Sequence record: NZ_CP106961.1 | Length of the DNA stretch: 64,000 nucleotides | Strand: one strand, 5' to 3' | DNA from: a plasmid | Notes under the pieces: generated by a model | Databases searched by the model: none | Seen by the model: the letters and a program-made list of their open reading frames with translations, nothing else | Told to the model about the DNA's origin: nothing | Translations under genes and position numbers: made by a program | Part shown: positions 2,863-52,232 of the stretch, piece after piece | Layout of the letters: every line of letters begins with the position of its first letter | How positions within the stretch are numbered: the first letter of the stretch is position 1

Positions 2863-3228
2863 ATGAGCGCCTACACAGTGTCCCGGCTGGCCCTTGATGC
2901 CGGGGTGAGCGTGCATATCGTGCGCGACTACCTGCTGCGCGGATTGCTACGGCCGGTCGCGTACACCACGGGCGGCTACGGCTTGTTCGATGACACCGCG
3001 TTGCAACGGCTGCGCTTTGTACGGGCTGCCTTCGAAGCGGGTATCGGCCTGGACGCACTGGCGCGGCTGTGCCGGGCGCTGGATGCTGCGGACGGTGACG
3101 GTGCGTCTGCGCAGCTTGCCGTGTTGCGGCAACTCGTCGAGCGTCGGCGCGAGGCCCTGGCCAGCCTCGAAATGCAACTGGCCGCCATGCCAACCGAACC
3201 GGCACAGCACGCGGAGAGTCTGCCATGA
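2863..3228 (+). CDS. merD: MerD co-regulator (MerR family)
   Basis: The product [44 protein letters not shown]... matches the Tn21/Tn501 MerD signature. An AGGAGG ribosome-binding site lies 7 nt upstream. Confidence 0.9.
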
Positions 3229-3868: not shown

Positions 3869-4426
3869 TTGCAAGGTCAACGCATTGGCTATATCCGCGT
3901 CAGCAGCTTCGACCAGAACCCTGATCGGCAACTGGAGCAAATCGAAGTCGGTAAGGTATTCACCGATAAGGCTTCCGGCAAGGACACGCAACGTCCCGAA
4001 CTTGAAAGGCTGCTGGCCTTTGTGCGCGAGGGCGACACCGTGGTGGTGCACAGCATGGACAGGTTGGCACGCAATCTCGATGACCTGCGCCGCATCGTTC
4101 AGGGGCTGACACAACGGGGCGTGCGGATGGAGTTTGTCAAAGAAGGGCTGGCGTTCACCGGCGATGACTCACCGATGGCCAATTTGATGCTGTCGGTCAT
4201 GGGGGCTTTTGCGGAGTTCGAGCGCGCACTGATCCGCGAACGCCAGCGCGAGGGAATCGTGCTGGCCAAGCAGCGCGGTGCCTACCGGGGACGAAAGAAA
4301 TCGCTGAACAGCGAACAAATTGCCAAGTTGAAACAGCGAGTCGCGGCAGGCGATCAAAAAACCTTGGTGGCCCGTGACTTCGGCATCAGTCGCGAAACCT
4401 TGTACCAGTACCTGCGGGAAGACTGA
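3869..4426 (+). CDS. tnpR: Serine resolvase TnpR (Tn21/Tn501 subfamily), probable TTG start
   Basis: The sequence QGQRIGYIRVSSFDQNPDRQLE...HSMDRLARNLDDLRRIV has the resolvase catalytic-Ser region and a C-terminal helix-turn-helix. A GGAGG site lies 5 nt upstream of the TTG at 3869. The ORF-track entry 3800.. is a 5' over-extension. Confidence 0.85.
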   Translation: MQGQRIGYIRVSSFDQNPDRQLEQIEVGKVFTDKASGKDTQRPELERLLAFVREGDTVVVHSMDRLARNLDDLRRIVQGLTQRGVRMEFVKEGLAFTGDDSPMANLMLSVMGAFAEFERALIRERQREGIVLAKQRGAYRGRKKSLNSEQIAKLKQRVAAGDQKTLVARDFGISRETLYQYLRED

Positions 4427-6698: not shown

Positions 6699-7397
6699 AC
6701 CGATCATGTCTTCGGCCTGATGCACCTACTGGGCTTCCGATTCGCGCCACGTATCCGAGACCTGGGCGACACCAAGCTATTCATCCCAAAGGGCGATGCC
6801 GCCTATGACGCGCTCAAGCCGATGATTAGCAGCGACCGGCTGAACATCAAGCAGATACGCGCCCATTGGGATGAAATCTTGCGGTTCGCCACTTCGATCA
6901 AGCAGGGTACGGTGACGGCCTCGCTGATGTTGCGCAAGCTCGGCAGCTATCCGCGTCAGAACGGACTGGCCGTTGCACTGCGCGAGCTGGGGCGCATTGA
7001 GCGCACGTTGTTCATACTGGATTGGCTGCAAAGCGTGGAGCTGCGCCGCCGCGTGCAGGCCGGACTCAACAAAGGCGAGGCGCGCAACGCGCTGGCCAGG
7101 GCGGTGTTCTTCAACCGACTGGGCGAAATCCGCGACCGCAGTTTTGAGCAACAACGCTACCGGGCCAGCGGCCTCAATCTGGTAACGGCGGCCATCGTGC
7201 TTTGGAACACGGCCTATCTGGAACGGGCAACCAATGCTTTGAACGGGCACGGCAAACCGGTAGACGAGACGCTGTTTCAATACCTGTCACCGCTGGGGTG
7301 GGAACACATCAATCTGACCGGCGATTACCTCTGGCGCAGCAGCACCAAGGTCGGCGCAGGCAAGTTCAGACCGTTGCGACCACTGCCACCGGCTTAA
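6699..7397 (+). pseudogene. tnpA: Tn21-family tnpA C-terminal segment
   Basis: The product [33 protein letters not shown]...[12 protein letters not shown] is the TnpA C-terminus. Its stop lies inside the terminal inverted repeat. Confidence 0.8.
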
Positions 7398-7430
7398 CGT
7401 GCTTTATTTTCCGTTTTCTGAGACGATCCC
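7393..7430. repeat. 38-bp terminal inverted repeat of a Tn21-subfamily transposon (tnpA end)
   Basis: The sequence CTTAACGTGCTTTATTTTCCGTTTTCTGAGACGATCCC is the reverse complement of the canonical GGGGTCGTCTCAGAAAACGGAAAATAAAGCACGCTAAG, with 2 mismatches. Confidence 0.85.
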
Positions 7431-7693
7431 TTATGAGCCTGCTGTCACCCTTTGACGTGGTGATATGGATGACGGATGGCTGGCCGCTGTATGAATCCCG
7501 CCTGAAGGGAAAGCTGCACGTAATCAGCAAGCGATATACGCAGCGAATTGAGCGGCATAACCTGAATCTGAGGCAGCACCTGGCACGGCTGGGACGGAAG
7601 TCGCTGTCGCTCTCAAAATCGGTGGAGCTGCATGACAAAGTCATCGGGCATTATCTGAACATAAAACACTATCAATAAGTTGGAGTCATTACC
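7431..7693 (+). mobile_element. IS1 3'-terminal fragment (insB' plus right inverted repeat), 263 bp
   Basis: It encodes the InsB C-terminus ...[48 protein letters not shown]...HYQ* and ends with the IS1 inverted repeat ...AAGTTGGAGTCATTACC. It abuts the Tn21-family inverted repeat directly. The ORF-track entry 7202..7678 is a chimeric read-through. Confidence 0.85.
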
Positions 7694-7833
7694 CTTTTTT
7701 CAACTTCTGATGGAAGCGAGTGATTGAACTCATACATTAATGTTTTCCCACGAAGTCTTTTTTCAGGTAAGCCTTCGCACATATCGGTAAATAGCTTGCC
7801 TGCTTTTATTTTTTCTGTCATCGACATGTTCAT
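7694..7833 (-). pseudogene. lacA: lacA 5' fragment (galactoside O-acetyltransferase), truncated by IS1
   Basis: The minus-strand translation MNMSMTEKIKAGKLFTDMCEGLPEKRLRGKTLMYEFNHS... matches the LacA N-terminus. It lies directly downstream of lacY, with a REP-like GCCGGATAAGGCGCTCGCGCC element between them. Coding stops at the IS1 end at 7693. Confidence 0.75.
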
Positions 7834-7898
7834 TTTTAACATTCCGTCCTGATAAGTTGGTCGGATAAGGCGCTCGCGCCGTATCCGACATTAATTTC

Positions 7899-9197
<1,299 letters not shown>

Positions 9198-9203
9198 TTA
9201 TTA

Positions 9204-12399
<3,196 letters not shown>

Positions 12400-13482
12400 T
12401 CACTGCCCGCTTTCAAGTCGGGAAACTTGTCGTGCCAGCTGCATTAAGGAATCTGCCAACGTGCGGGGAGAGGTGGTTTGCGTATTGGGCGGTAGGGTGG
12501 TTTTTCTTTTCACCAGTGAGACGGGCAACAGCTGATTGCTCTTCACCGCCTGGCCCTGAGAGAGTTTCAGCAAGCGGTCCACGCTAGTTTTCCCCAGCAG
12601 GCGAAAATCCTGTTTGATGGTGGTTAACGGCGGGATATAACACGAGCTGTCTTCGGTATCGTCGTATCCCACTACCGAGATATCCGCACCAACGCGCAGC
12701 CCGGACTCGGTAATAGCGCGCATTGCGCCCAGCGCCATCTGATCGTTGGCAACCAGCATCGCAGTGGGAACGATGCCCTCATTCAGCATTTGCATAGTTT
12801 GTTGAAAACCGGACATGGCACTCCAGTCGCCTTCCCGTTCCGCTATCGGATGAATTTGATTGCGTGTGAGATATTTATGCCAGTCCGCCAGACGCAGACG
12901 CGCCGAGACAGAACTTAATGGACCGGCTAACAACGCGATTTGCTGGTGACCCAATGCGATCAGATGCTCCACACCCAGTCGCGTACCGTCTTCATGGGAA
13001 AAAATAATACTGTTGATGGGAGTCTGGTCAGAGACATCAAGAAATAGGGCCGGAACATTAGCGCAGGCAGCTTCCACAGCAATGGCATCCTCGTCATCCA
13101 GCGGATAGTTAATGATCAGACCACTGACGCGTTGCGCGAGAAGGTTATGTACCGCCGCTTTACAGGCTTCGACGCTGCTTCGTTCTACCATCGACACCAC
13201 CACGCTGGCACCCAGTTGATCGGCGCGAGATTTAATCGCCGCGACAATTTGCGACGGCGCGTGCAGGGCCAGACTGGAGGTAGCAACGCCAATCAGCAAC
13301 GACTGTTTGCCCGCCAGTTGTTGTGCCACGCGGTTGGGAATGTAGTTCAGCTGCGCCATCGCCGCTTCCACCTTTTCCCGCGTTTTCGCAGAGACGTGGC
13401 TGGCCTGGTTCATCACGCGGGAAACGGTCTGATAAGAGACACCGGCATACTCTGCGACATCGTATAGCGTTACTGGTTTCAC
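12400..13482 (-). CDS. lacI: Lac repressor LacI (GTG start)
   Basis: The 360-aa product (V)KPVTLYDVAEYAGVSYQTVSRVMNQASHVSAKTREKVEAAM... is LacI-like and the GTG start matches E. coli lacI. The ORF-track entry 12400..13578 is over-extended. Confidence 0.95.
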   Translation of the reverse strand: MKPVTLYDVAEYAGVSYQTVSRVMNQASHVSAKTREKVEAAMAQLNYIPNRVAQQLAGKQSLLIGVATSSLALHAPSQIVAAIKSRADQLGASVVVSMVERSSVEACKAAVHNLLAQRVSGLIINYPLDDEDAIAVEAACANVPALFLDVSDQTPINSIIFSHEDGTRLGVEHLIALGHQQIALLAGPLSSVSARLRLADWHKYLTRNQIHPIAEREGDWSAMSGFQQTMQMLNEGIVPTAMLVANDQMALGAMRAITESGLRVGADISVVGYDDTEDSSCYIPPLTTIKQDFRLLGKTSVDRLLKLSQGQAVKSNQLLPVSLVKRKTTLPPNTQTTSPRTLADSLMQLARQVSRLESGQ

Positions 13483-21020: not shown

Positions 21021-21452
21021 TCAGCCCGCATTGATCATGCGGCGGTGTGCATCAGCCATAGCCTGATGGGGGCCGGACTGACCGTTATTCGTAAATTCAT
21101 GGGCAACAGCTGCTCTTTCATGTTCATTCATCGCCGCAAACGAAGTCGCCGGACGGGAAGCGTTAACGGTGCCAGTTCCCATCATCTTCTGATGACTTTC
21201 CGCCATTTTTTTATGTGCATCTGCTGAACCATTGTTCATGGTTTCATGAACAATAATAGCCTGTTCATGCTGATCCATACCGGCCATCCGTGGAGCTGCC
21301 CCCTGGATGGCGGCTGGAGTTGAAGAAGACTGCATCTGATGGGCCGGAGCCTGAGCATTATTGACACGCTCATGGATATTTACAGTTTCAGTGGCCCAGG
21401 CCGTAGAAATTAAGCTCAAACCTAACACTGATGCTAAGACGATATTTTTCAT
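21021..21452 (-). CDS. silE: Periplasmic silver-binding protein SilE
   Basis: The product MKNIVLASVLGLSLISTAWATETVNIHERVNNAQAPAHQMQ...MNEHERAAVAHEF... shows the SilE/PcoE repeat pattern. The ORF-track entry is over-extended at its 5' end. Confidence 0.9.
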   Translation of the reverse strand: MKNIVLASVLGLSLISTAWATETVNIHERVNNAQAPAHQMQSSSTPAAIQGAAPRMAGMDQHEQAIIVHETMNNGSADAHKKMAESHQKMMGTGTVNASRPATSFAAMNEHERAAVAHEFTNNGQSGPHQAMADAHRRMINAG

Positions 21453-33733: not shown

Positions 33734-34458
33734 TCAGTCCAGGTATCGTTCGTAGTCTCTGACATGCGCAAAGGCATGCTGTTCGAGTTTGTTATCAGCG
33801 GGTGCCGCTGCCCGGAACGCCAGAGAGTTAACAGGGTTGTTATTGATGACCAGCTCGTAATGCAGATGAGGACCGGATGAACGTCCGCTGTTACCGGATA
33901 ACGCAATAGCGTCTCCCCGGGTAACCCTGGCCCCTTTAGTAACGAGTATTTTATTGAGGTGGAGATAGCGAGTTTTAACACCGGCTTTTCCCGTTACTTC
34001 AACAAAATATCCCATGGTACTGTTGTATTCGGCCCGGGTGATTTTTCCGTCGATGACGCTGACTATTTTCGTGTTCATGGGCATGGAATAATCAATGCCA
34101 TTATGGGGACTCACTTTTCCCGATACCGGGTTAAGTCTTGCAGGATTGAAAGGCGAACTGAGTCTTGCTGTGGCCGGTAACGGATAATCGAGACTGCCTT
34201 TCCCGGAAGTATCGGAAAGGTTATAGAACTTTTTATCTGATATACGATACGCCGTGTAATTAAATGAACCGGACGTAAATTTATAGGCCACGACACGTGA
34301 TTTTCCCGCTTTCTTTTGCAGTACGAGTTTTAATGATTCATTTTTTTTCAAATGCCGCAGATTAAACCGGGAAGGCAAGGAGCGCTGAAGAGTAGCGATC
34401 TCGTTCGATTCCAGCCCCGAGCGGGTGGCTGAAAGGTAGGCATTTTCTTTTACGACAT
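33734..34458 (-). pseudogene. M23-family (LytM-type) metallopeptidase gene, 3' part; 5' end displaced by the IS1 composite insertion
   Basis: The C-terminus ...RGDAIALSGNSGRSSGPHLHYELVINNNPVN carries the HxH M23 motif. The frame runs open up to the IS1 inverted repeat at 34459 and resumes after the duplicated target site at 42040-42075. Confidence 0.7.
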
Positions 34459-34514
34459 CGGTAATGCTGCCAACTTACTGATTTAGTGTATGATGGTGAT
34501 TTTAAGGTGCTTGC

Positions 34515-34790
34515 GTGGCTTCCATTTCCATCAGATGTCCTTCCTGCTCCGCTACTGAAGGCGTGGTGCGTAACGGCAAAAGCACTGCCGGACATCAGCG
34601 CTATCTCTGCTCTCATTGCCGTAAAACATGGCAACTACAGTTCACTTACACCGCCTCTCAGCCCGGTACGCACCAGAAAATCATTGATATGGCCATGAAT
34701 GGCGTCGGATGTCGCGCCAGTGCACGCATTATGGGCGTTGGCCTCAACACGGTTTTACGTCACTTAAAAAACTCAGGCCGCAGTCGGTAA
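34515..34790 (+). CDS. insA: IS1 InsA
   Basis: The 91-aa product [91 protein letters not shown] is IS1 InsA. Confidence 0.9.
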
Positions 34791-35110
34791 CCTGGCGCAT
34801 ACAACCGGGCAGTGATGTGATTGTCTGCGCTGAAATGGACGAACAGTGGGGCTACGTCGGTGCTAAATCACGTCAGCGCTGGTTATTTTACGCATATGAC
34901 AGGATACGGAGGACGGTTGTGGCGCACGTCTTCGGTGAACGCACTCTGGCCACACTGGAGCGTCTTCTGAGCCTGCTGTCGGCCTTTGAGGTCGTGGTAT
35001 GGATGACGGATGGCTGGCCGCTGTATGAATCACGCCTGAAGGGAAAGCTGCGTCTCCGTAGCACGTTATCAGCAAGCGTTACACTCAGCGCATTGAGCGA
35101 CATAACCTGA
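34709..35110 (+). pseudogene. insB: IS1 insB, frameshifted by a small insertion
   Basis: The sequence matches InsB up to ...[10 protein letters not shown]. It then reads [19 protein letters not shown] instead of [15 protein letters not shown]... Confidence 0.8.
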
Positions 35111-35259
35111 ATCTGAGACAACATCTGGCAAGGCTGGGACGGAAGTCACTGTCGTTCTCAAAATCGGTGGAGCTGCATGACAAGGTCATCGGGCATTATC
35201 TGAACATAAAACACTATCAGTAAGTTGGAGTCATTACCGGTTTAGTCTATGAATAAACA

Positions 35260-36066
35260 TTAAATAATGTCTACTTCCACCAGAACCCCAAAGTGATCCG
35301 ATACAACCGGATAAAAATCGTTATTAAAAATCACCTGATGCTGCTTTACCACCATCGGTTGATTACTAAGAACCAAATCAATGCGTAGCGCTTGGCTATT
35401 TTGTTCCCAACCGTCAATATTTTTAATTACAGTAGTTCCGGAGTCTTTTATTTCTGCTATTTCATAACAATCTATCAAACCGCACTGTAATACATAATCA
35501 TAACCTTCATTGCGTATATGGCTTGGGTTGTTGAAATCGCCTAATAGAAAGCTCAACTCTGTTGATAATGTTGCCTTTATTCTGTTGAACTGGTCCTCAA
35601 ATGAGCTCTCTGAGTCACTCCACCAGCCGCAATGACAATTATAAAGATTGAAATCACCTCGTTGAGAAGTGACCTTAATACGCACTGCTCGCCTATGTTT
35701 CCAAAAGTTCACATCATAGTTATCACTTAGGTCAATGACCTCATGCTCGACAATCGGCAGTCGCGTCAAGAATGCCAGTCCCTCTTGATATACGTCATAA
35801 CTTTGATGAACGAAATCCCATGTAAGTTGGTAGTGATAGCCGTATTCCATGAGTTTTTTCTGTAATAAATATCCATAGTTATCAGCGAGCACGGTGTGAT
35901 TAGTTAATATATTGGCATCAACAGCCGAGCTATTTTGATGTTGATTCACTTCCTGTAATGCAACGACATCGCACCCTTGCTCGATAATGGCTTGCGCTAC
36001 CACATCCAACTTTTCTAGTTGTTTCTCTTCTTGCCAACTATGGGTATTTAGCGTCATTAACTTCAT
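35260..36066 (-). CDS. Endonuclease/exonuclease/phosphatase (EEP) family protein
   Basis: The 268-aa product has an N-terminal LQEVN motif and a C-terminal SDH motif typical of the EEP fold. The gene is low-GC. Confidence 0.7.
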   Translation of the reverse strand: MKLMTLNTHSWQEEKQLEKLDVVAQAIIEQGCDVVALQEVNQHQNSSAVDANILTNHTVLADNYGYLLQKKLMEYGYHYQLTWDFVHQSYDVYQEGLAFLTRLPIVEHEVIDLSDNYDVNFWKHRRAVRIKVTSQRGDFNLYNCHCGWWSDSESSFEDQFNRIKATLSTELSFLLGDFNNPSHIRNEGYDYVLQCGLIDCYEIAEIKDSGTTVIKNIDGWEQNSQALRIDLVLSNQPMVVKQHQVIFNNDFYPVVSDHFGVLVEVDII

Positions 36067-36152
36067 TTATTATTCACTTATTCATTGTAGCGAGTTAAAC
36101 GCAGCTCAAGGCTGCGTTTCTCGAGGTTATTTTATCTAGGGTAGAGAATGAA

Positions 36153-37781
36153 TTACGCAGGTTGTGCTGAAAACTTCTCAACTAATCTAGATTTAATGAC
36201 ATCCACTCCTGGACCATAAATAACTTGTACTCCCTGTTCTTTAATTACAGCACCAAGTGCTCCTGTCGGCTTCCATAATGCATATTCAGCAACCAACTGC
36301 GGGTCATTAACTGTAATGCGCAAGCGAGTCATACAAGCATCAATCTCAACAATATTGGCACGGCCACCTAAATTCTGAATAATAATGTCCATCTTCTCAT
36401 CTTCTGACATGGATTCTGAACTTTCATCGAGGTAGTTACCCATACGGCCCGGTGTTGGCAATTTAAATTTGACAATGAGCACACGGAATAATCCATAGTT
36501 AACACCAAAGAAAACAATAGAAACCAATGCGAAGCGAACCAAATCACCACCGATTCCCGCTGAAACCATCATAGGTATACGAGTGAGTAACTCAATCAAA
36601 CCAAAGGCATGTATACGTAGGTCCATCACATCGACCAACGCAAATGCAATCCCTGTTAATACCGCATGCGCAACATACAAAACAGGAGCAATAAACATAA
36701 ACATGAATTCAATAGGCTCTGTCACACCGGTTAATAACACAGCAAGACACGCAGATAAAAACATTGGCTTGTATTGTGCGCGCTTATCACTATCAACACA
36801 GTGATACATCGCAAGTCCAATACCAATCAATGAAGACGCTGCGATAATAACTTGGCCCGCTTTAAAACGTGCTGGATGCACCGTATCTAATAGATGTTGG
36901 TAAGTTGTCGGATCGCTTAATTTAAGATTATTTAAATCGCTAACCCAAGCAAGCCATAGTGGATCTTGACCATAAACACTTGCCCCCGCATTCACCCCTG
37001 TTAAAAGCTCATAAGTACCACCCAACTCGGTGTAATTCATTGGAATAGTTAAAGTGTGGTGTAAACCAAATGGCAGTAATAAGCGCTCTAACGTACCATA
37101 CAAGAAAGGAGCAGTGATCGGCGCAGTGTCTTTAGAGGTTGCAATCCATTGACCAAAATCATTAAGCGCACCTTGAATTAAAGGCCATACGATTGATAAA
37201 GCAAACGCAATAATCATCGAATAGAAAATAACAACAAAAGGTACAAAACGCTTACCGTTGAAAAATGCTAATGCCTGAGGTAAGCGAGCGAAGTCATGAT
37301 AACGGTTAAATAAGTTGGCACCTAAATAGCCAGACATAATACCGATAAACACACCCATATTTAGAGCAGGAGCACCCAAAATATTAGTGAAGAATTGAGA
37401 GACAGGTAGCTCAGAACCAAATAGGCTCATCACAACCGCCTCGGGATCACTGAGCATAGCGTTATCCACGCCTAATATAACCCCAGTGATACGGTTAATT
37501 AAGATGAAGGCGATCAGCGCGGCAAATGCTCCTCCTGCACGTTCTTTAGCCCATGATCCACCAATAGCGACAGCAAATAATAGGTGAAGATTAACTATGA
37601 TCCCCCAGCCTATGTTTTCCATAATAGCGCCTAGTGTTTCAATGGCACCAATACCACCAGCATACATTGCGACAACTTTACCGAGTGATATCATGATACC
37701 AGCGGCTGGCATCACCGCGATAACAACGATAAGGGATTTCCCAAATCGTTGCCAAAAATCAAAAGATAGTAACTGACTCAT
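36153..37781 (-). CDS. PTS glucose-family EIICB component (alpha-glucoside/trehalose-type specificity likely)
   Basis: The product has an EIIC membrane domain followed by a C-terminal EIIB with the NIVEIDACMTRLRITV phospho-Cys signature. Confidence 0.85.
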   Translation of the reverse strand: MSQLLSFDFWQRFGKSLIVVIAVMPAAGIMISLGKVVAMYAGGIGAIETLGAIMENIGWGIIVNLHLLFAVAIGGSWAKERAGGAFAALIAFILINRITGVILGVDNAMLSDPEAVVMSLFGSELPVSQFFTNILGAPALNMGVFIGIMSGYLGANLFNRYHDFARLPQALAFFNGKRFVPFVVIFYSMIIAFALSIVWPLIQGALNDFGQWIATSKDTAPITAPFLYGTLERLLLPFGLHHTLTIPMNYTELGGTYELLTGVNAGASVYGQDPLWLAWVSDLNNLKLSDPTTYQHLLDTVHPARFKAGQVIIAASSLIGIGLAMYHCVDSDKRAQYKPMFLSACLAVLLTGVTEPIEFMFMFIAPVLYVAHAVLTGIAFALVDVMDLRIHAFGLIELLTRIPMMVSAGIGGDLVRFALVSIVFFGVNYGLFRVLIVKFKLPTPGRMGNYLDESSESMSEDEKMDIIIQNLGGRANIVEIDACMTRLRITVNDPQLVAEYALWKPTGALGAVIKEQGVQVIYGPGVDVIKSRLVEKFSAQPA

Positions 37782-37840
37782 AAATGATTCCTTGGTTTAA
37801 ATGCAGGGTAGCCTTATCAAGGCCCTGCGATAAATATAAT

Positions 37841-39574
37841 TTAGTGCTTTCTTGCAAATATATACGCAGCATAAGGTGGGGCAATTTGCGTCGCTATAAA
37901 ATCTGAGCGAACGTGTTCATTGTTGACATTCTGATTATCAAGCATTAACTCGCCTAATTGCATGCGGTCGATATCAACGATGCTCTCTTGTGGACTTAAA
38001 TTGGTAATAATGGTCCATGTCATATCTTGTGCAACACGTTGATAAGCATAGATATTAGGGTCGTTAGGTAGCAGCAATTGATAGCGGCCAACCACTAAAC
38101 TTACATTTGACTTACGCAGAGCAATCAGCTGCTTATAGAAACTCAAAATCGAATTTGGATCTTTCTGTTGTTGCTCAACATTGATATCTGCGTACTGTTG
38201 ATTGACGGAGAACCAAGGTTGCACCTCAGAAAAACCGGCAAAATCCTGCGCATTCCATTGCATTGGCAAGCGACTGTGGTCGCGAGATACTTGATTTAAC
38301 AAGGCTAAGATGTCTGCATCGCTTTGACCTTGTTGAGATAGCTTTTGAATTAAATTTCTAGCAGACACATCATTAAATTCATCAAGAGAAGTAAACTGAT
38401 GATTTACCATACCAATCTCTTGGCCCTGATAAATAAACGGAGTTCCTTTCATCAAGAAATAACAACTCGCTAACGCGGTAGCACTGGCATACCTAGAGGT
38501 AGGGTCGGCAAAAGTATCAATGCTACGAGCTTGATCGTGGTTTTCTAAATAAAGCGCATTCCAGCCTTTACCTTCTAATGCATCTTGCCAACGCGATAAA
38601 ATGCGTTTGAACTCCACTAGATCTAAAGGCACGTTGCTTTGTTCTTCCGACCATAGCTTCATGTGTTCAAACTGAAAAATCATGTTGAAAACACCGCCTT
38701 GATCGTGCTCGGTCGCTTCGGCAACCCAAAGTAATGCATTGTCGGCAGTCACCCCATTAGCCTCACCAACTGTCACTATGTTAAAGGGATCAAACGCCTG
38801 CTCTTTTAACTCATGCAGATGTTTTTCAATCCCTGCCACATTCATATGATAATCAAACGAAGAGACATACTTTTCACCCTTTGGATTGGGTAAAGAAGGT
38901 AAACCTGGTTGTTTCTGAATATGGCTAATTGCATCCACACGGAAGCCATCAATACCACGCTCCAACCACCAATAAATCATTTTAAATAGTGCTTGTTTAA
39001 CTTCAGGATTTTCCCAATTCAGATCAGGTTGTTTTTTTGAAAATAGGTGCAAGTAGTACTGTGCAGTTTTTTTATCATATTCCCATGCGCTGCCATGAAA
39101 AATACTTTCCCAGTTGTTTGGGTCGCAAGTCGGTTTTTCAGCGGTAGGCTCACAACCATCACGCCAAATATACCAATCGCGCTTAGGGCTATTTTTGTTA
39201 TCTCGAGATTCAATGAACCATGGGTGCTCGTCGCTAGTGTGGTTGATCACTAAATCCATAATAATGCGAATGCCACGTTTATGAGCAGCACTGATTAGTT
39301 CATCCACATCCTCAAGGGTTCCAAAGTCAGGATGAATCGCTTGATAGTCACTAATATCGTACCCGTTATCATCATTAGGTGATGCATAGAATGGGCAAAT
39401 CCATATTAAATCAATGCCCAAATCAGCAAGATAATCGAGCTTAGCAATGATGCCATTGATGTCACCAATACCGTCCTGGTTTGTATCATAAAAACTACGG
39501 GGATAAATTTGGTAGGCGGTTGCTTTCTTCCACCACGCGAGTGGTTTTGAGTGCATATTAGGAGCGAGTGTCAT
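37841..39574 (-). CDS. GH13 alpha-glucosidase (oligo-1,6-glucosidase / phospho-trehalase-like)
   Basis: The product shows GH13 regions I-IV (DLVINHTSDEH, GFRVDAISHI, VGEANG, FLENHDQAR). Confidence 0.85.
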   Translation of the reverse strand: MTLAPNMHSKPLAWWKKATAYQIYPRSFYDTNQDGIGDINGIIAKLDYLADLGIDLIWICPFYASPNDDNGYDISDYQAIHPDFGTLEDVDELISAAHKRGIRIIMDLVINHTSDEHPWFIESRDNKNSPKRDWYIWRDGCEPTAEKPTCDPNNWESIFHGSAWEYDKKTAQYYLHLFSKKQPDLNWENPEVKQALFKMIYWWLERGIDGFRVDAISHIQKQPGLPSLPNPKGEKYVSSFDYHMNVAGIEKHLHELKEQAFDPFNIVTVGEANGVTADNALLWVAEATEHDQGGVFNMIFQFEHMKLWSEEQSNVPLDLVEFKRILSRWQDALEGKGWNALYLENHDQARSIDTFADPTSRYASATALASCYFLMKGTPFIYQGQEIGMVNHQFTSLDEFNDVSARNLIQKLSQQGQSDADILALLNQVSRDHSRLPMQWNAQDFAGFSEVQPWFSVNQQYADINVEQQQKDPNSILSFYKQLIALRKSNVSLVVGRYQLLLPNDPNIYAYQRVAQDMTWTIITNLSPQESIVDIDRMQLGELMLDNQNVNNEHVRSDFIATQIAPPYAAYIFARKH

Positions 39575-39642
39575 CGGTTATACTATATGTGTTATCGTTA
39601 ACATATATAGTTAAGTAGAACCGATTTGGACTCAACACAATT

Positions 39643-40608
39643 TCAGAGGAATTGTGAGCTTTCTCTCATCTTTATGTCGAATGTGCCTTCAACAGAACTG
39701 AAATCGCGCTTGAGCAATTTTTTGACAGCTTGGTAGCCCACTTGATAGTAGTTAAAAGCGACAGTCGTCAGGCTCGGGACTAACAAATCGCTGTAGTCAT
39801 AGTCACCCATGCCTACAATCCATACGTTATGACCGATCTTGAGTTGCTGTTCTTTGGCGCGACGATATAAACGAATGGCAATATTATCGGTGGCACAAAA
39901 GTAGACATGATTAGGCTGTAATTGAACGGCCTGATAGCCAGCTTTGTCCTCCGAGTTGGCTAGGGCTTGTAGTGATAAATTCAACTCAGGGACGGTGTCG
40001 GTAATAGTGGCTTGCATCAACTTAGTGCGGCTAGAAAGCATACGCTCATCATAAATATAATGTACGGCAGCCAGCGGTGCCTGCTGCTGTTTTAACTGAG
40101 TGATGGTGTGGGAGACGAGGGCTTTAATCGCTGCATGATCGGGGTAATATAAACAGCAATGGTGGGGGGTATTTTTGCCAATAAATACCACATTGTCTAA
40201 GGTTCGATAAAAAGTCTCTTCGACACTGTGCTTTGACGCAATAATAATCGTGCCCAATGCATTTAAGCCGTTAAACTCTCTCACAGCTTGGCATTCTGAC
40301 TCATGGTTAAACCCTGTGGCATGAAACAGCATTCGTACTTGTGATTCATTGGCAGCAGCCAGCGCCCCTTTAATCACTAAACTGGTCGTATATGACTCAA
40401 TACGAGGCGCGATGAAACCAATAATATTGGATTGGCTACGAATGGAGCGAGCAAATATATTAGGCGTGTAATGACTCTCTTTGACGATGGCATCAATTTT
40501 AAGGCGGTTCTCTTCCGAGACATAACCGCCATTAAAGTAACGCGACACAGTCATTGTTGAAATTCCAAGCTGCCTTGAAATCTCAGCCATGGTCATTTTT
40601 TTACTCAT
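39643..40608 (-). CDS. LacI-family transcriptional regulator
   Basis: The N-terminal helix-turn-helix MAEISRQLGISTMTVSRYFNG is followed by a periplasmic-binding-fold domain. Confidence 0.85.
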   Translation of the reverse strand: MSKKMTMAEISRQLGISTMTVSRYFNGGYVSEENRLKIDAIVKESHYTPNIFARSIRSQSNIIGFIAPRIESYTTSLVIKGALAAANESQVRMLFHATGFNHESECQAVREFNGLNALGTIIIASKHSVEETFYRTLDNVVFIGKNTPHHCCLYYPDHAAIKALVSHTITQLKQQQAPLAAVHYIYDERMLSSRTKLMQATITDTVPELNLSLQALANSEDKAGYQAVQLQPNHVYFCATDNIAIRLYRRAKEQQLKIGHNVWIVGMGDYDYSDLLVPSLTTVAFNYYQVGYQAVKKLLKRDFSSVEGTFDIKMRESSQFL

Positions 40609-40856
40609 TACCTATTTCCTTCAATAATGCACTATTGCCATATCTCCAAGTGACTTCAAGATACAGAATTCAGAGTTGAGTCACTTGGGCATAGTATCCA
40701 ATATATTGGCTAACAACACAGTAAATAAAACTGGGTGGACGTATGAGTGTTTAATTTTCACTCACAAGATTTAGACCTGAACTCAAGACCAAGGAGCGAG
40801 CGGTAATGCTGCCAACTTACTGATTTAGTGTATGATGGTGATTTTGAGGTGCTCCA

Positions 40857-41132
40857 GTGGCTTCCATTTCCATCAGATGTCCTTCCTGCTCCGCTACTGA
40901 AGGCGTGGTGCGTAACGGCAAAAGCACTGCCGGACATCAGCGCTATCTCTGCTCTCATTGCCGTAAAACATGGCAACTACAGTTCACTTACACCGCCTCT
41001 CAGCCCGGTACGCACCAGAAAATCATTGATATGGCCATGAATGGCGTCGGATGTCGCGCCAGTGCACGCATTATGGGCGTTGGCCTCAACACGGTTTTAC
41101 GTCACTTAAAAAACTCAGGCCGCAGTCGGTAA
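40857..41132 (+). CDS. insA: IS1 InsA
   Basis: The product is identical to the insA of the copy at 34515. Confidence 0.9.
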
Positions 41133-41554
41133 CCTCGCGCATACAACCGGGCAGTGATGTGATTGTCTGCGCTGAAATGGACGAACAGTGGGGCTACGTC
41201 GGTGCTAAATCACGTCAGCGCTGGCTGTTTTACGCGTATGACAGGATACGGAGGACGGTTGTGGCGCACGTCTTCGGTGAACGCACTCTGGCCACACTGG
41301 AGCGTCTTCTGAGCCTGCTGTCGGCCTTTGAGGTCGTGGTATGGATGACGGATGGCTGGCCGCTGTATGAATCACGCCTGAAGGGAAAGCTGCACGTTAT
41401 CAGCAAGCGTTACACTCAGCGCATTGAGCGACATAACCTGAATCTGAGACAACATCTGGCAAGGCTGGGACGGAAGTCACTGTCGTTCTCAAAATCGGTG
41501 GAGCTGCATGACAAGGTCATCGGGCATTATCTGAACATAAAACACTATCAGTAA
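41051..41554 (+). CDS. insB: IS1 InsB (expressed as InsAB' by -1 frameshift)
   Basis: The product ...[73 protein letters not shown] matches IS1 InsB. Confidence 0.9.
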
Positions 41555-41569
41555 GTTGGAGTCATTACC

Positions 41570-42030
41570 AAAAACTCAGGCCGCAGTCGGTAACCTCGCG
41601 CATACAACCGGGCAGTGATGTGATTGTCTGCGCTGAAATGGACGAACAGTGGGGCTACGTCGGTGCTAAATCACGTCAGCGCTGGCTGTTTTACGCGTAT
41701 GACAGGATACGGAGGACGGTTGTGGCGCACGTCTTCGGTGAACGCACTCTGGCCACACTGGAGCGTCTTCTGAGCCTGCTGTCGGCCTTTGAGGTCGTGG
41801 TATGGATGACGGATGGCTGGCCGCTGTATGAATCACGCCTGAAGGGAAAGCTGCACGTTATCAGCAAGCGTTACACTCAGCGCATTGAGCGACATAACCT
41901 GAATCTGAGACAACATCTGGCAAGGCTGGGACGGAAGTCACTGTCGTTCTCAAAATCGGTGGAGCTGCATGACAAGGTCATCGGGCATTATCTGAACATA
42001 AAACACTATCAGTAAGTTGGAGTCATTACC
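41570..42030 (+). mobile_element. 5'-truncated IS1 copy (IS1 positions about 307-768) directly abutting the preceding complete IS1
   Basis: The sequence restarts at AAAAACTCAGGCCGCAGTCGG, which is an internal IS1 position. It runs to a right inverted repeat ending at 42030. The ORF-track entry 41620..42015 is an InsB C-terminal fragment. Confidence 0.85.
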
Positions 42031-42039
42031 TACGACATT

Positions 42040-42075
42040 CGGTAGAATACATTTACTGGAATTCGCCGTTAGCAT
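42040..42075 (-). pseudogene. 5' end (12 codons) of the M23-peptidase gene split by the IS1 composite element
   Basis: Removing the composite element and one copy of the 9-bp duplication joins 42040 to 34458 in frame: MLTANSSKCILP|DVVKENAYLSATR... Confidence 0.5.
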
Positions 42076-42340: not shown

Positions 42341-42790
42341 TTACCTGGTCGAATACAGCCCGCGAAGCTTTCTTGCCTGCGTCTGATGTGCTTCCGCACC
42401 GGCATTATTGACCTGCTCATGCACGAGAGCGGCTTTTTCTCCGGCATTCAGTTCGTTAAAAGAAGAAGACGAGGTCTTTGAATTTGCATCACTGCCGGAC
42501 AGCATTTTTTTATGTTCCTCAATCATTTTCTGATGCGCATAGGACGCGCTGTTGTTCATAAATGAATGAGCAACAATGGCCCTTTCATGTTCATTCATTT
42601 CAGAGAATGAGGGCGTGTTGTTTTTATTAACCCTGTCCGGTAAGTTTTCATGCGTCGAGGAGTTCACATGACTGACGGCTGAGGCATTATTAACAAATCG
42701 ATGTGCTTCATGGGCAATATCACTGGACTGAGCAAAAGCTGCCCCACAAAATAAAGCTGTAAACGCAGTGGTCGTGATTAATATATTCAT
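42341..42790 (-). CDS. SilE/PcoE-family periplasmic metal-binding protein (second copy, divergent from pcoA)
   Basis: The product has a signal peptide and repeated M..HE.A/VAH motifs (FSEMNEHERAIVAHSF..., FNELNAGEKAALVHEQ...). Confidence 0.7.
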   Translation of the reverse strand: MNILITTTAFTALFCGAAFAQSSDIAHEAHRFVNNASAVSHVNSSTHENLPDRVNKNNTPSFSEMNEHERAIVAHSFMNNSASYAHQKMIEEHKKMLSGSDANSKTSSSSFNELNAGEKAALVHEQVNNAGAEAHQTQARKLRGLYSTR

Positions 42791-50942: not shown

Positions 50943-52232
50943 TTACAAAGTGATGGAAAGCCGCAACGCCAGCGCGGCCAGAGTGACAAACAGCACGGGC
51001 AGAGTCATGATAATGCCGGTGCGGAAGTAATAACCCCAGGTGATCGTTATATTTTTCCGGGCAAGCACATGCAGCCAAAGCAGGGTTGCCAGACTGCCAA
51101 TCGGGGTGATTTTCGGGCCTAAATCGCAGCCAATCACGTTGGCATAAATCATTGCCTCTTTGACGACGCCAGTCGCCGTACTCCCGTCAATCGACAGCGC
51201 GCCAATCAGCACCGTCGGCATATTGTTCATCACCGACGACAGGAACGCGGTCAGGAAGCCGGTGCCGAACGTTGCTGCCCATAACCCCTTTTCTGCCAGC
51301 AGGTTCAGTACACCAGACAGATACTCCGTGAGCCCGGCATTGCGCAGGCCATAGACCACCAGGTACATGCCCAGCGAAAAAATCACGATCTGCCATGGCG
51401 CACTGCGCAGGACTTTCCCTGTGTTGATGCCATGACCTCTTTTCGCCACGATAAACAGTACTGCTGCGCCAGCAGCTGCTATCGCGCTGACAGGGATCCC
51501 CAGCGGCTCCAGAACGAAGAAACCGACAAGCAGCAATAACAGGACAATCCAGCCCGCCCTGAACGTTGCCGCATCCTTTATCACACTGGCAGGCGTCTTC
51601 AGCAGCGAAACGTCATACGTTGCCGGAATATCCCTGCGGAAGAAGAGATGCAGCATGATCAGCGTGGCCGCAATCGCTGCCGCATCCACGGGGATCATAA
51701 CGGAGGCGTACTGCGTAAAGCCCAGATCGAAGAAGTCCGCCGAGACGATATTCACCAGGTTAGAAACAATGAGTGGCAGGCTGGCCGTATCTGCAATAAA
51801 TCCTGCAGCCATGACAAAGGCCAGTGTCGTGCCCTGGCTGAACCCCAGTGCGAGCAGCATCGCAATCACAATCGGCGTCAGGATCAGCGCGGCGCCATCA
51901 TTGGCGAACAAAGCAGCAACAGCGGCACCGAGCAAGACTATCCAGGTGAACAGCAGGCGGCCACGTCCGTTACCCCAGCGGGAGACGTGCAGTGCGGCCC
52001 ACTCAAAGAAGCCGGACTCATCGAGCAGCAGGCTGATGATGATGACCGCAATAAATGCCGCTGTCGCGTTCCAGACGATATTCCAGACAACGGGAATATC
52101 AGCGATATGGATGACACCGGTTCCCAGCGCCAGCACAGCCCCGATACTCGCGCTCCAGCCAATACTCAGGCCTCTGGGTTGCCAGATCACCAGTACCAGC
52201 GTCAGTAAAAATATACTCCCTGCCAAAAGCAT
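50943..52232 (-). CDS. arsB: Arsenite efflux pump ArsB
   Basis: The 429-aa product, starting at [19 protein letters not shown], is colinear with R773 ArsB. The ORF-track entry is over-extended by 26 codons. Confidence 0.92.

Follow-up and report, generated by a model that had tools for sequence, protein, structure and literature searches.

The locus described here resembles two kinds of known systems, namely mobile elements bounded by the insertion sequence (IS) IS1 and maltose uptake systems with a MapP-type phosphatase. The passage on Tn2670 in PMC5034289 presents the Tn2670 backbone as an IS1-bounded compound transposon. In Enterococcus faecalis (Mokhtari et al. 2013, via the section on this pathway in PMC3737437), the malT gene for a permease of the Glc family is followed by the mapP gene for an EEP-family phosphatase, with a LacI-family regulator nearby, and MapP is a maltose-6'-phosphate phosphatase that returns the product of the phosphotransferase system (PTS) to free maltose. 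The name pcoG is taken from PMC4824010, according to which the gene is co-transcribed with pcoF from the copper-inducible PpcoF promoter. The window analysed in this study is a stretch of 64,000 nucleotides from the plasmid record NZ_CP106961.1, and the element of interest in it is a Tn9-type IS1 compound transposon: two direct IS1 copies around 5.56 kb of foreign DNA, inserted into pcoG, the M23 metallopeptidase gene of the copper-inducible pcoFG operon in the sil/pco island (CHASRI) of a Leclercia-type plasmid.

The Tn9/Tn2670 backbone (IS1-catA1-IS1) and this unit share the direct IS1 pair, a short cargo, the use of the outer ends, a 9-bp target duplication and IS1-adjacent deletions. In contrast to Tn9 and Tn2670, the cargo here is a Vibrio catabolic operon and not a resistance gene, the IS1 copies belong to another isoform, the unit is known from its sequence, and in the window one IS1 is frameshifted and an extra partial IS1 is present. 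A sugar cargo bounded by IS1-family elements was also described on a Leclercia plasmid, the galactan utilisation region of pP10164-3, which has other genes at another location and for which the relevant passage of PMC5034289 describes no target duplication. IS1-captured sugar loci in Leclercia therefore have a precedent.

The order of a MalT-type permease gene and an EEP phosphatase gene with a LacI-family regulator nearby is the same as in E. faecalis, but the unit has no fused EIIA, carries a GH13 enzyme in place of the GH65 maltose phosphorylase, beta-phosphoglucomutase and epimerase, and occurs in Gram-negative hosts, as genes only. A trio of GH13, EIICB and EEP genes in the same order is also found in Bacillus (e.g., B. 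thuringiensis pLUSID2), where protein identity is only about 48-59% and no LacI gene lies beside the trio in the stretch examined.

Structure and Target Site of the IS1-Bounded Unit

The features that define the unit and its insertion site are as follows.

33734-34459, minus strand: body of pcoG, codons 5-245 and stop; translation DVVKENAYLS...DYERYLD, then stop; matches WP_004118669.1; Pfam Csd3_N2 and Peptidase_M23
34451-34459, no strand: left target duplication, TACGACATC, 9 bp
34460-35238, plus strand: left IS1, 779 bp, with its left inverted repeat at 34460-34482
35239-40801, minus strand: whole cargo segment, 5563 bp, 41.4% GC
40802-41569, plus strand: complete right IS1, 768 bp, with its right inverted repeat at 41547-41569
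41570-42030, plus strand: partial IS1 corresponding to IS1 positions 308-768, with a right inverted repeat at 42008-42030
42031-42040, no strand: right target duplication with one inserted T, TACGACATTC, from comparison with the empty site and relatives
42041-42052, minus strand: displaced first four codons of pcoG, ATG TAT TCT ACC (MYST), from the window and the empty site
42341-42790, minus strand: pcoF, PcoE-family periplasmic protein of 149 aa; WP_001023257.1, 'copper resistance protein'; PF27346; PMC4824010

All three IS1 segments lie on the plus strand, and the partial copy directly abuts the complete right copy. The ancestral unit amounts to 7099 bp (768 + 5563 + 768). Its cargo, with a GC content well below the 51.7% and 49.2% of the 10-kb flanks, holds four open reading frames (ORFs), every one on the minus strand. 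Paired IS1 copies, intact outer ends, one sequence-intact transposase and a 9-bp duplication together with an empty site, the structural marks of an IS1 compound transposon, are all present. Only one insertion site with its own duplication was found, whereas a full definition would also ask for at least two such independent sites or for demonstrated transposition. The same structure occurs in many independent assemblies, and an assembly artefact was ruled out for the element as a whole.

The target gene was identified from its position and its sequence. In the window and its relatives, the gene order is silP, DUF2933, pcoG (minus strand), pcoF (minus strand) and pcoA, so that the M23 gene lies downstream of pcoF and between silP and pcoA, the arrangement that characterises pcoFG in CHASRI. 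The first gene of the interrupted operon is pcoF. The insertion point falls at codons 5-7 of pcoG and separates the body of the gene from both the start codon and the PpcoF promoter. Intact PcoG (WP_004118669.1) has 245 aa and starts with MYSTDVVKEN; a TAA stop stands immediately before the start codon. An uninterrupted gene was found in Pluralibacter gergoviae pFB2.3 and at two further related loci (L001 and L091).

The right flank in the window starts TACGACATTCGGTAG, and the empty site in pFB2.3 reads TTTTACGACATCGGTAGAATACAT, from which it follows that the right copy of the repeat is the 9-mer plus an inserted T, with no mismatch. A perfect TACGACATC on both sides of the unit was read directly in pLEC-5e18, in the Enterobacter mori plasmid and in pL21-1NR, and all seven PLSDB plasmids with the right junction match at 200 of 201 positions, i.e., without the extra T. 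The chance of a 9/9 match at two fixed positions is about 4e-6, and since an uninterrupted empty site exists, the repeats represent a true target duplication.

An earlier note on this DNA had proposed that an IS1-bounded composite unit sits, with a 9-bp duplication, in an M23 peptidase gene of the sil/pco island, and the junctions, the empty site and the related plasmids bear this out; the comparison with empty islands that it suggested gave uninterrupted pcoG in other plasmids such as pFB2.3. Its coordinates for the complete IS1 (40802-41569) and the truncated IS1 (41570-42030) are right, while its left IS1 (34459-35238) has the correct end and a start one base too low. The repeats that it placed at 34450-34458 and 42031-42039 are indeed direct repeats, with the left one shifted by a base to 34451-34459 and the right one extended to 42031-42040 by the extra T. 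Removal of the unit restores the gene, as had been claimed, but with MYST followed by DVVKEN at the N-terminus and not with 'MLTANSSKCILP', an extension that arises because the extra T gives a +1 shift.

Origin of the Cargo in Vibrio

The cargo is nearly identical to a cluster on Vibrio fluvialis chromosomes. Positions 35260-40801 of the window (5542 bp) align to it without gaps and with 13 mismatches, a DNA identity of 99.77%, and the four genes (LacI, GH13, EIICB, EEP) stand in the same order. The match ends exactly at the EEP stop codon; the following 21 bp of the cargo (35239-35259) differ from V. fluvialis and, by their sequence, come from elsewhere. In V. fluvialis (L108-L111, 8774-14315), the cluster has a conserved chromosomal position between a pseudouridine-synthase gene near the trp operon and an ABC-transporter gene pair, and in contrast to the plasmid-borne copy it has no flanking IS. 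The four-gene operon would thus have been copied very recently from a Vibrio chromosome, the allele being that of V. fluvialis. The suggestion of the earlier note that the low-GC cargo is Vibrio- or Gammaproteobacteria-like was thereby confirmed for Vibrio, and the search for a donor lineage that it recommended led to this chromosomal cluster.

The first donor search covered GTDB species representatives, and the V. fluvialis match came later via cluster members. Vibrio splendidus 12E03, Psychromonas and Photobacterium had the best loci among the representatives, and Bacillus came next at about 55%. The V. splendidus cluster has the same four genes in the same order with 92% DNA identity, and V. 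splendidus as donor was superseded by the closer match in V. fluvialis.

Proteins 98-99.7% identical to those of the cargo were observed in V. fluvialis, V. diazotrophicus, V. cincinnatiensis, V. metschnikovii, V. quintilis, V. rumoiensis, V. litoralis and V. gangliei, and the cluster seems to spread among vibrios by some route other than IS.

The cluster also has a foreign composition in V. fluvialis, with 41% GC against 48-53% in its flanks; V. fluvialis therefore carries the donor allele and is not necessarily the ultimate source.

IS1 Copies and Later Changes in the Window

When the left IS1 is aligned with the right one, eight substitutions separate them, and because of these differences they do not come from one replicative duplication. 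In the left IS1 of the window, an 11-bp insertion near 35050-35060 (IS1 position 590) frameshifts insB, whose ORF has 133 aa versus 167 aa in the right IS1; the outer inverted repeat is intact. By its sequence, the left IS1 is probably non-autonomous. The 11-bp insertion is common to pLEC-5e18, QDSM01 p2 and the E. mori plasmid, and it is absent from pL21-1NR and, as implied by alignment lengths, from a further locus (L096), so that it represents a later mutation of one sublineage that arose after the insertion of the unit. The left IS1 of pL21-1NR is a chimera of the left and right types. The right IS1 appears to be intact: its insA has 91 aa and its insB 167 aa, and the A6C frameshift motif is found at 41106.

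The partial IS1 is 100% identical to the right IS1 and carries its private base 335C. It starts inside the A-run of the frameshift site and provides the outer right inverted repeat in the window. Neither the partial IS1 nor the extra T was seen at any related locus examined, and in a search of the junction between IS1 and partial IS1 against PLSDB, every top match was a single IS1 whose two pieces the tool had put together. Elsewhere, over stretches of 31.5 kb and 21.4 kb, the window and pLEC-5e18 show 99.99% identity, so that the extra T and the partial IS1 are peculiar to this spot and do not reflect general assembly noise. At 41570-42040, they could represent either a real local rearrangement or an assembly error. 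In the former case, the tandem partial right IS1 and the extra T in the right repeat would be, like the frameshift in the left insB, later changes in the lineage of the window.

Distribution and Derivatives

Nine PLSDB plasmids carry the cargo at about 100% identity, eight of them from Leclercia and one from E. mori, and in 7/9 it lies at the pcoG site. In the remaining two, one IS1 abuts sequence from another part of the window, namely the left IS1 at window position 21325 in QDSM01 p2 and the right IS1 at window position 50943 in pLEC-000f. Both were considered as independent transpositions and rejected; they are IS1-adjacent deletions of the pcoG insertion.

Beyond PLSDB, the exact GH13 protein was found in 381 index blocks of a large assembly collection, with chromosomes among them. 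Citrobacter, Enterobacter and Leclercia are named among the cluster members, as are E. coli and Cronobacter in the case of the EEP cluster. Most of the ten exact-GH13 places examined keep the pcoG-side junction, i.e., they hold the same insertion. Where the left end is truncated, at 34995, IS26 lies beside it at one locus and a mer operon is close by at three more. Outside the window, IS1-adjacent deletions together with insertions of IS26 or mer transposons have worn down the element and the sil and pco genes next to it. The other contexts examined are either descendants of one insertion via IS1/IS26 rearrangements or are without the end needed to test the duplication.

Deletions to the right start from the end of the right IS1 at four loci (L099, L103, L100, L101) and reach 42468, 45830, 48893 or 50943. 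They progressively take pcoF, pcoA-D and more, which is the pattern expected of IS1-adjacent deletions.

On the chromosome of E. coli ET220 (L094, 5043-12772), the cargo lies in an island next to a type I restriction-modification system. Between IS1 and the cargo, 190 extra bp are present, a further 8 V. fluvialis-matching bp precede ISKpn26, and a glucokinase gene is nearby. This locus suggests that a longer Vibrio fragment once existed in Enterobacteriaceae. E. coli ABWA45 (L095) retains just 368 bp of the cargo.

A literature search of incomplete coverage turned up no paper describing the element. It is real but fairly ordinary as a composite transposon, and it is unnamed although it is already present, automatically annotated, in many public genomes.

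Mode of Insertion and an IS1 Hotspot

The pcoG junctions are most simply explained by a single insertion into codons 5-7, most likely as one 7.1-kb unit, in which the left IS1 would have contributed its left inverted repeat and the right IS1 its right inverted repeat as outer ends and TACGACATC would have been duplicated. One-step compound transposition is the most economical reading and is considered probable. The earlier note had the whole 7.6-kb unit transposing as a composite; the composite unit holds, the size has to be reduced to the ancestral 7099 bp, and a single step is only the most economical interpretation.

The 5' end of pcoG and the adjacent spacer form a hotspot for IS1. The same bond is occupied in Klebsiella pneumoniae pCARKWA (L088, 3092-3100 / 3869-3877) by a single IS1 with 89% identity, in the same orientation and with the same TACGACATC duplication, and in E. 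coli and Shigella IncF/IncR plasmids (L089 and L090, ~3092-3100) by IS1B with 91% identity in the opposite orientation. Two IS1A insertions were found in the vicinity. One lies between the pcoG start and pcoF, at a distance of 25 bp (L091), and the other near the pcoF stop codon (L001).

Several observations weigh against the one-step reading. Other IS1 isoforms use the site, and an IS1 could thus have been resident there before the cargo arrived. A second independent insertion with its own duplication was found neither in the two PLSDB plasmids with other flanks nor among the ten exact-GH13 places, so that the case for mobility of the unit draws on one event. In addition, where new flanks do occur, on one chromosome (L097) and in E. 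coli ET220 with its deletion derivative ABWA45, one IS1 end is missing.

In a two-step alternative, a lone IS1 entered at TACGACATC first and produced the duplication, and the cargo with the second IS1 followed by homologous recombination between IS1 copies. That the very same nucleotide holds a lone IS1 in pCARKWA, with the same duplication and orientation, and an oppositely oriented IS1B in plasmids of E. coli and Shigella speaks for such an order of events, as does the evident exchange of sequence between IS1 copies at this locus, the left IS1 of pL21-1NR being a left/right chimera. The lone copies at the site, however, belong to other isoforms, all seven PLSDB records with the IS1 junction of this element also carry the cargo, and the two IS1 copies of the unit are not identical, so the two-step course appears unlikely. 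Integration of a circular IS1-cargo molecule would be one example of such recombination, and on the two-step reading the duplication would be uninformative about movement of the unit as a whole. Far less credible is a cointegrate followed by deletion, in which an IS1 beside the cargo on a donor replicon would have fused that replicon to the plasmid by replicative transposition into pcoG, the remaining donor DNA being lost in an IS1-mediated deletion. IS1 forms cointegrates, and IS1-adjacent deletions are frequent around the element; yet this course would start with an identical IS1 pair, while here the copies are eight substitutions apart in the lineages compared, and between the IS1 copies no remnant of a donor backbone was found, the cargo ending at most 21 bp from the last Vibrio-matching gene. 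One-step transposition of the compound unit therefore remains the preferred reading.

Predicted Sugar Pathway

The four cargo genes and the palindrome between two of them are listed below.

35260-36066, minus strand: EEP-family protein, 268 aa; PF03372
36153-37781, minus strand: PTS EIICB permease, 542 aa, MalT-like; EIIC and EIIB domains, no EIIA
37841-39574, minus strand: GH13 alpha-glucosidase, 577 aa; PF00128
39573-39625, no strand: imperfect palindrome of about 53 nt between the regulator and GH13 genes, from an inverted-repeat search
39643-40608, minus strand: LacI-family regulator, 321 aa; PF00356 and PF13377

Homology predicts, with reasonable likelihood for both substrates and activities, a trait of PTS uptake of maltose or short maltodextrins by a MalT/MapP-type route. 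The MalT-like EIICB would import maltose or short maltodextrins and phosphorylate them at the 6' position, with a host EIIA, probably Crr, as the phosphoryl donor. The MapP-like EEP phosphatase would then strip this phosphate, the GH13 alpha-1,4-glucosidase would cleave the freed sugar to glucose, and the LacI-family protein would keep the operon repressed until an inducer is present.

At the level of homology, a MalT-orthologous permease and an adjacent EEP phosphatase are both present. The permease passed the model TIGR02003 with 828.9 bits against a cut-off of 649.85, while it stayed far under the cut-offs of the TreB, Agl, MalX and PtsG models and also failed the NagE model. Aligned along all of its 542 aa with E. 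faecalis MalT, it shows 58% identity, the EIIB site DACMTRLR included, and it stops after EIIB, where MalT has a further C-terminal stretch of about 180 aa (EIIA). The EEP gene lies directly downstream of the permease gene, as in Enterococcus. Its product is 34% identical to E. faecalis MapP over the full length (E = 1e-51) and keeps the motifs NTHSW, QEV, GD-NN and SDHFG; relatives carry the name maltose 6'-phosphate phosphatase in JGI and UniRef, and the best solved structure is 3TEB. The protein is predicted to be a MapP-like maltose-6'-phosphate phosphatase.

The GH13 protein has the catalytic regions DLVINH, GFRVDAISH and ENHDQ, and among solved structures 2ZE0 and 5ZCB-5ZCE come closest to it, with about 700 bits. 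In region II of such enzymes, Ala after the nucleophile is the signature of alpha-1,4 specificity, while Val is found in alpha-1,6 enzymes and TreC. The enzyme is accordingly predicted to be specific for alpha-1,4 linkages. The LacI-family regulator is 96% identical to the V. splendidus orthologue and reaches no NCBIfam equivalog.

Several points count against the MalT/MapP-type route. No EIIA was found in the permease or elsewhere in the unit, so that the phosphoryl relay is incomplete within it. The GH13 protein just reaches the cut-off of the broad 'phosphotrehalase' subfamily NF008183 (535.1 vs. 535). The MapP-type maltose pathway has been characterised so far in Firmicutes only, the Gram-negative members being known from sequence. 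Finally, in pL21-1NR (L007, ~6850-9400), the place of the permease gene between those for EEP and GH13 is taken by a third IS1 and no permease coding sequence is listed, so that the sugar trait seems not to be retained in every case.

Another sugar, i.e., trehalose (TreB/TreC-like), sucrose isomers (Agl-like) or isomaltose, is an improbable alternative. Besides the borderline NF008183 score, it could draw on the oligo-1,6-glucosidases, which are also strong GH13 matches (about 500-560 bits, with 562 for 1UOK), and on the names of Vibrio regulator orthologues, one being called TreR in UniRef and sucrose operon repressor appearing in another source. The permease, however, fails the TreB models (27.1 vs. 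592 and 25.3 vs. 409) and the alpha-glucoside permease model TIGR02005 (168.3 vs. 607.3), the GH13 protein falls short of the TreC equivalog TIGR02403 (575.8 vs. 799), and the regulator scores 67.6 against a cut-off of 357 for TreR. No GH4 phospho-alpha-glucosidase gene is present in the unit. The nearest solved GH13 structures are alpha-glucosidases, whereas 5BRQ, which we take to be a trehalose-6-phosphate hydrolase, reaches 470 bits, and Ala follows the nucleophile in GFRVDAISH. A MapP-like phosphatase, moreover, is sensible only if the hydrolase acts on the free disaccharide. On the NCBIfam cut-offs and the nearest solved structures, a trehalose PTS and a sucrose-isomer PTS were rejected. 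Of the earlier proposal of an alpha-glucoside-type PTS cluster for trehalose, isomaltulose or alpha-glucosides, the cluster type is supported by the domains, the family models and the MalT/MapP homology, while trehalose and isomaltulose drop out with the failure of the TreB, TreC, TreR and Agl models. Maltose or short maltodextrins thus remain the preferred substrates.

The palindrome at 39573-39625 is a candidate operator or terminator. Promoter-like sites (21 vs. 15.8 ± 3.7 expected) and terminator-like sites (5 vs. 4.5 ± 2.4 expected) were not above background, and the unit was given no promoter. The palindrome is also found at the same place in E. coli ET220.

The four cargo genes stand on the same strand as pcoF and pcoG inside a copper-inducible operon, and read-through from PpcoF could therefore put sugar uptake partly under copper. 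A broader proposal, that the unit gives Enterobacteriaceae a PTS-dependent, Mal-regulon-independent MapP-type route for maltose and maltodextrins, with partial copper control by PpcoF read-through and metal co-selection, is highly speculative and as a whole doubtful.

Other Features of the Window

By collinearity with pLEC-5e18, a plasmid-borne lacI-lacZ-lacY operon was located at ~7899-13482, and beside it lies a 264-bp IS1 remnant with 92% identity (7430-7693). The window also contains IS26 (1910-2729) with an adjoining mer operon, and ars, chrA and cadR genes downstream of pco.

Implications

The element leaves the understanding of how IS1 compound transposons work unchanged, and its interest lies in its near-identical Vibrio source, the Gram-negative MapP-type route, the exact hotspot in pcoG and the same-strand placement of the cargo in a copper-inducible operon. 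The precise IS1 hotspot at the 5' end of pcoG is relevant to the typing of sil/pco islands. The cargo points to a maltose route of the MapP type, 'phosphorylate on entry, then dephosphorylate', in Gram-negative bacteria, and, as it lies inside a metal-resistance island, the use of copper or silver can co-select a metabolic trait. With 99.8% DNA identity and IS1 as the carrier, the unit is a clear example, open to dating, of genes that passed very recently from Vibrio chromosomes to plasmids and chromosomes of Leclercia, Enterobacter, Citrobacter and E. coli.

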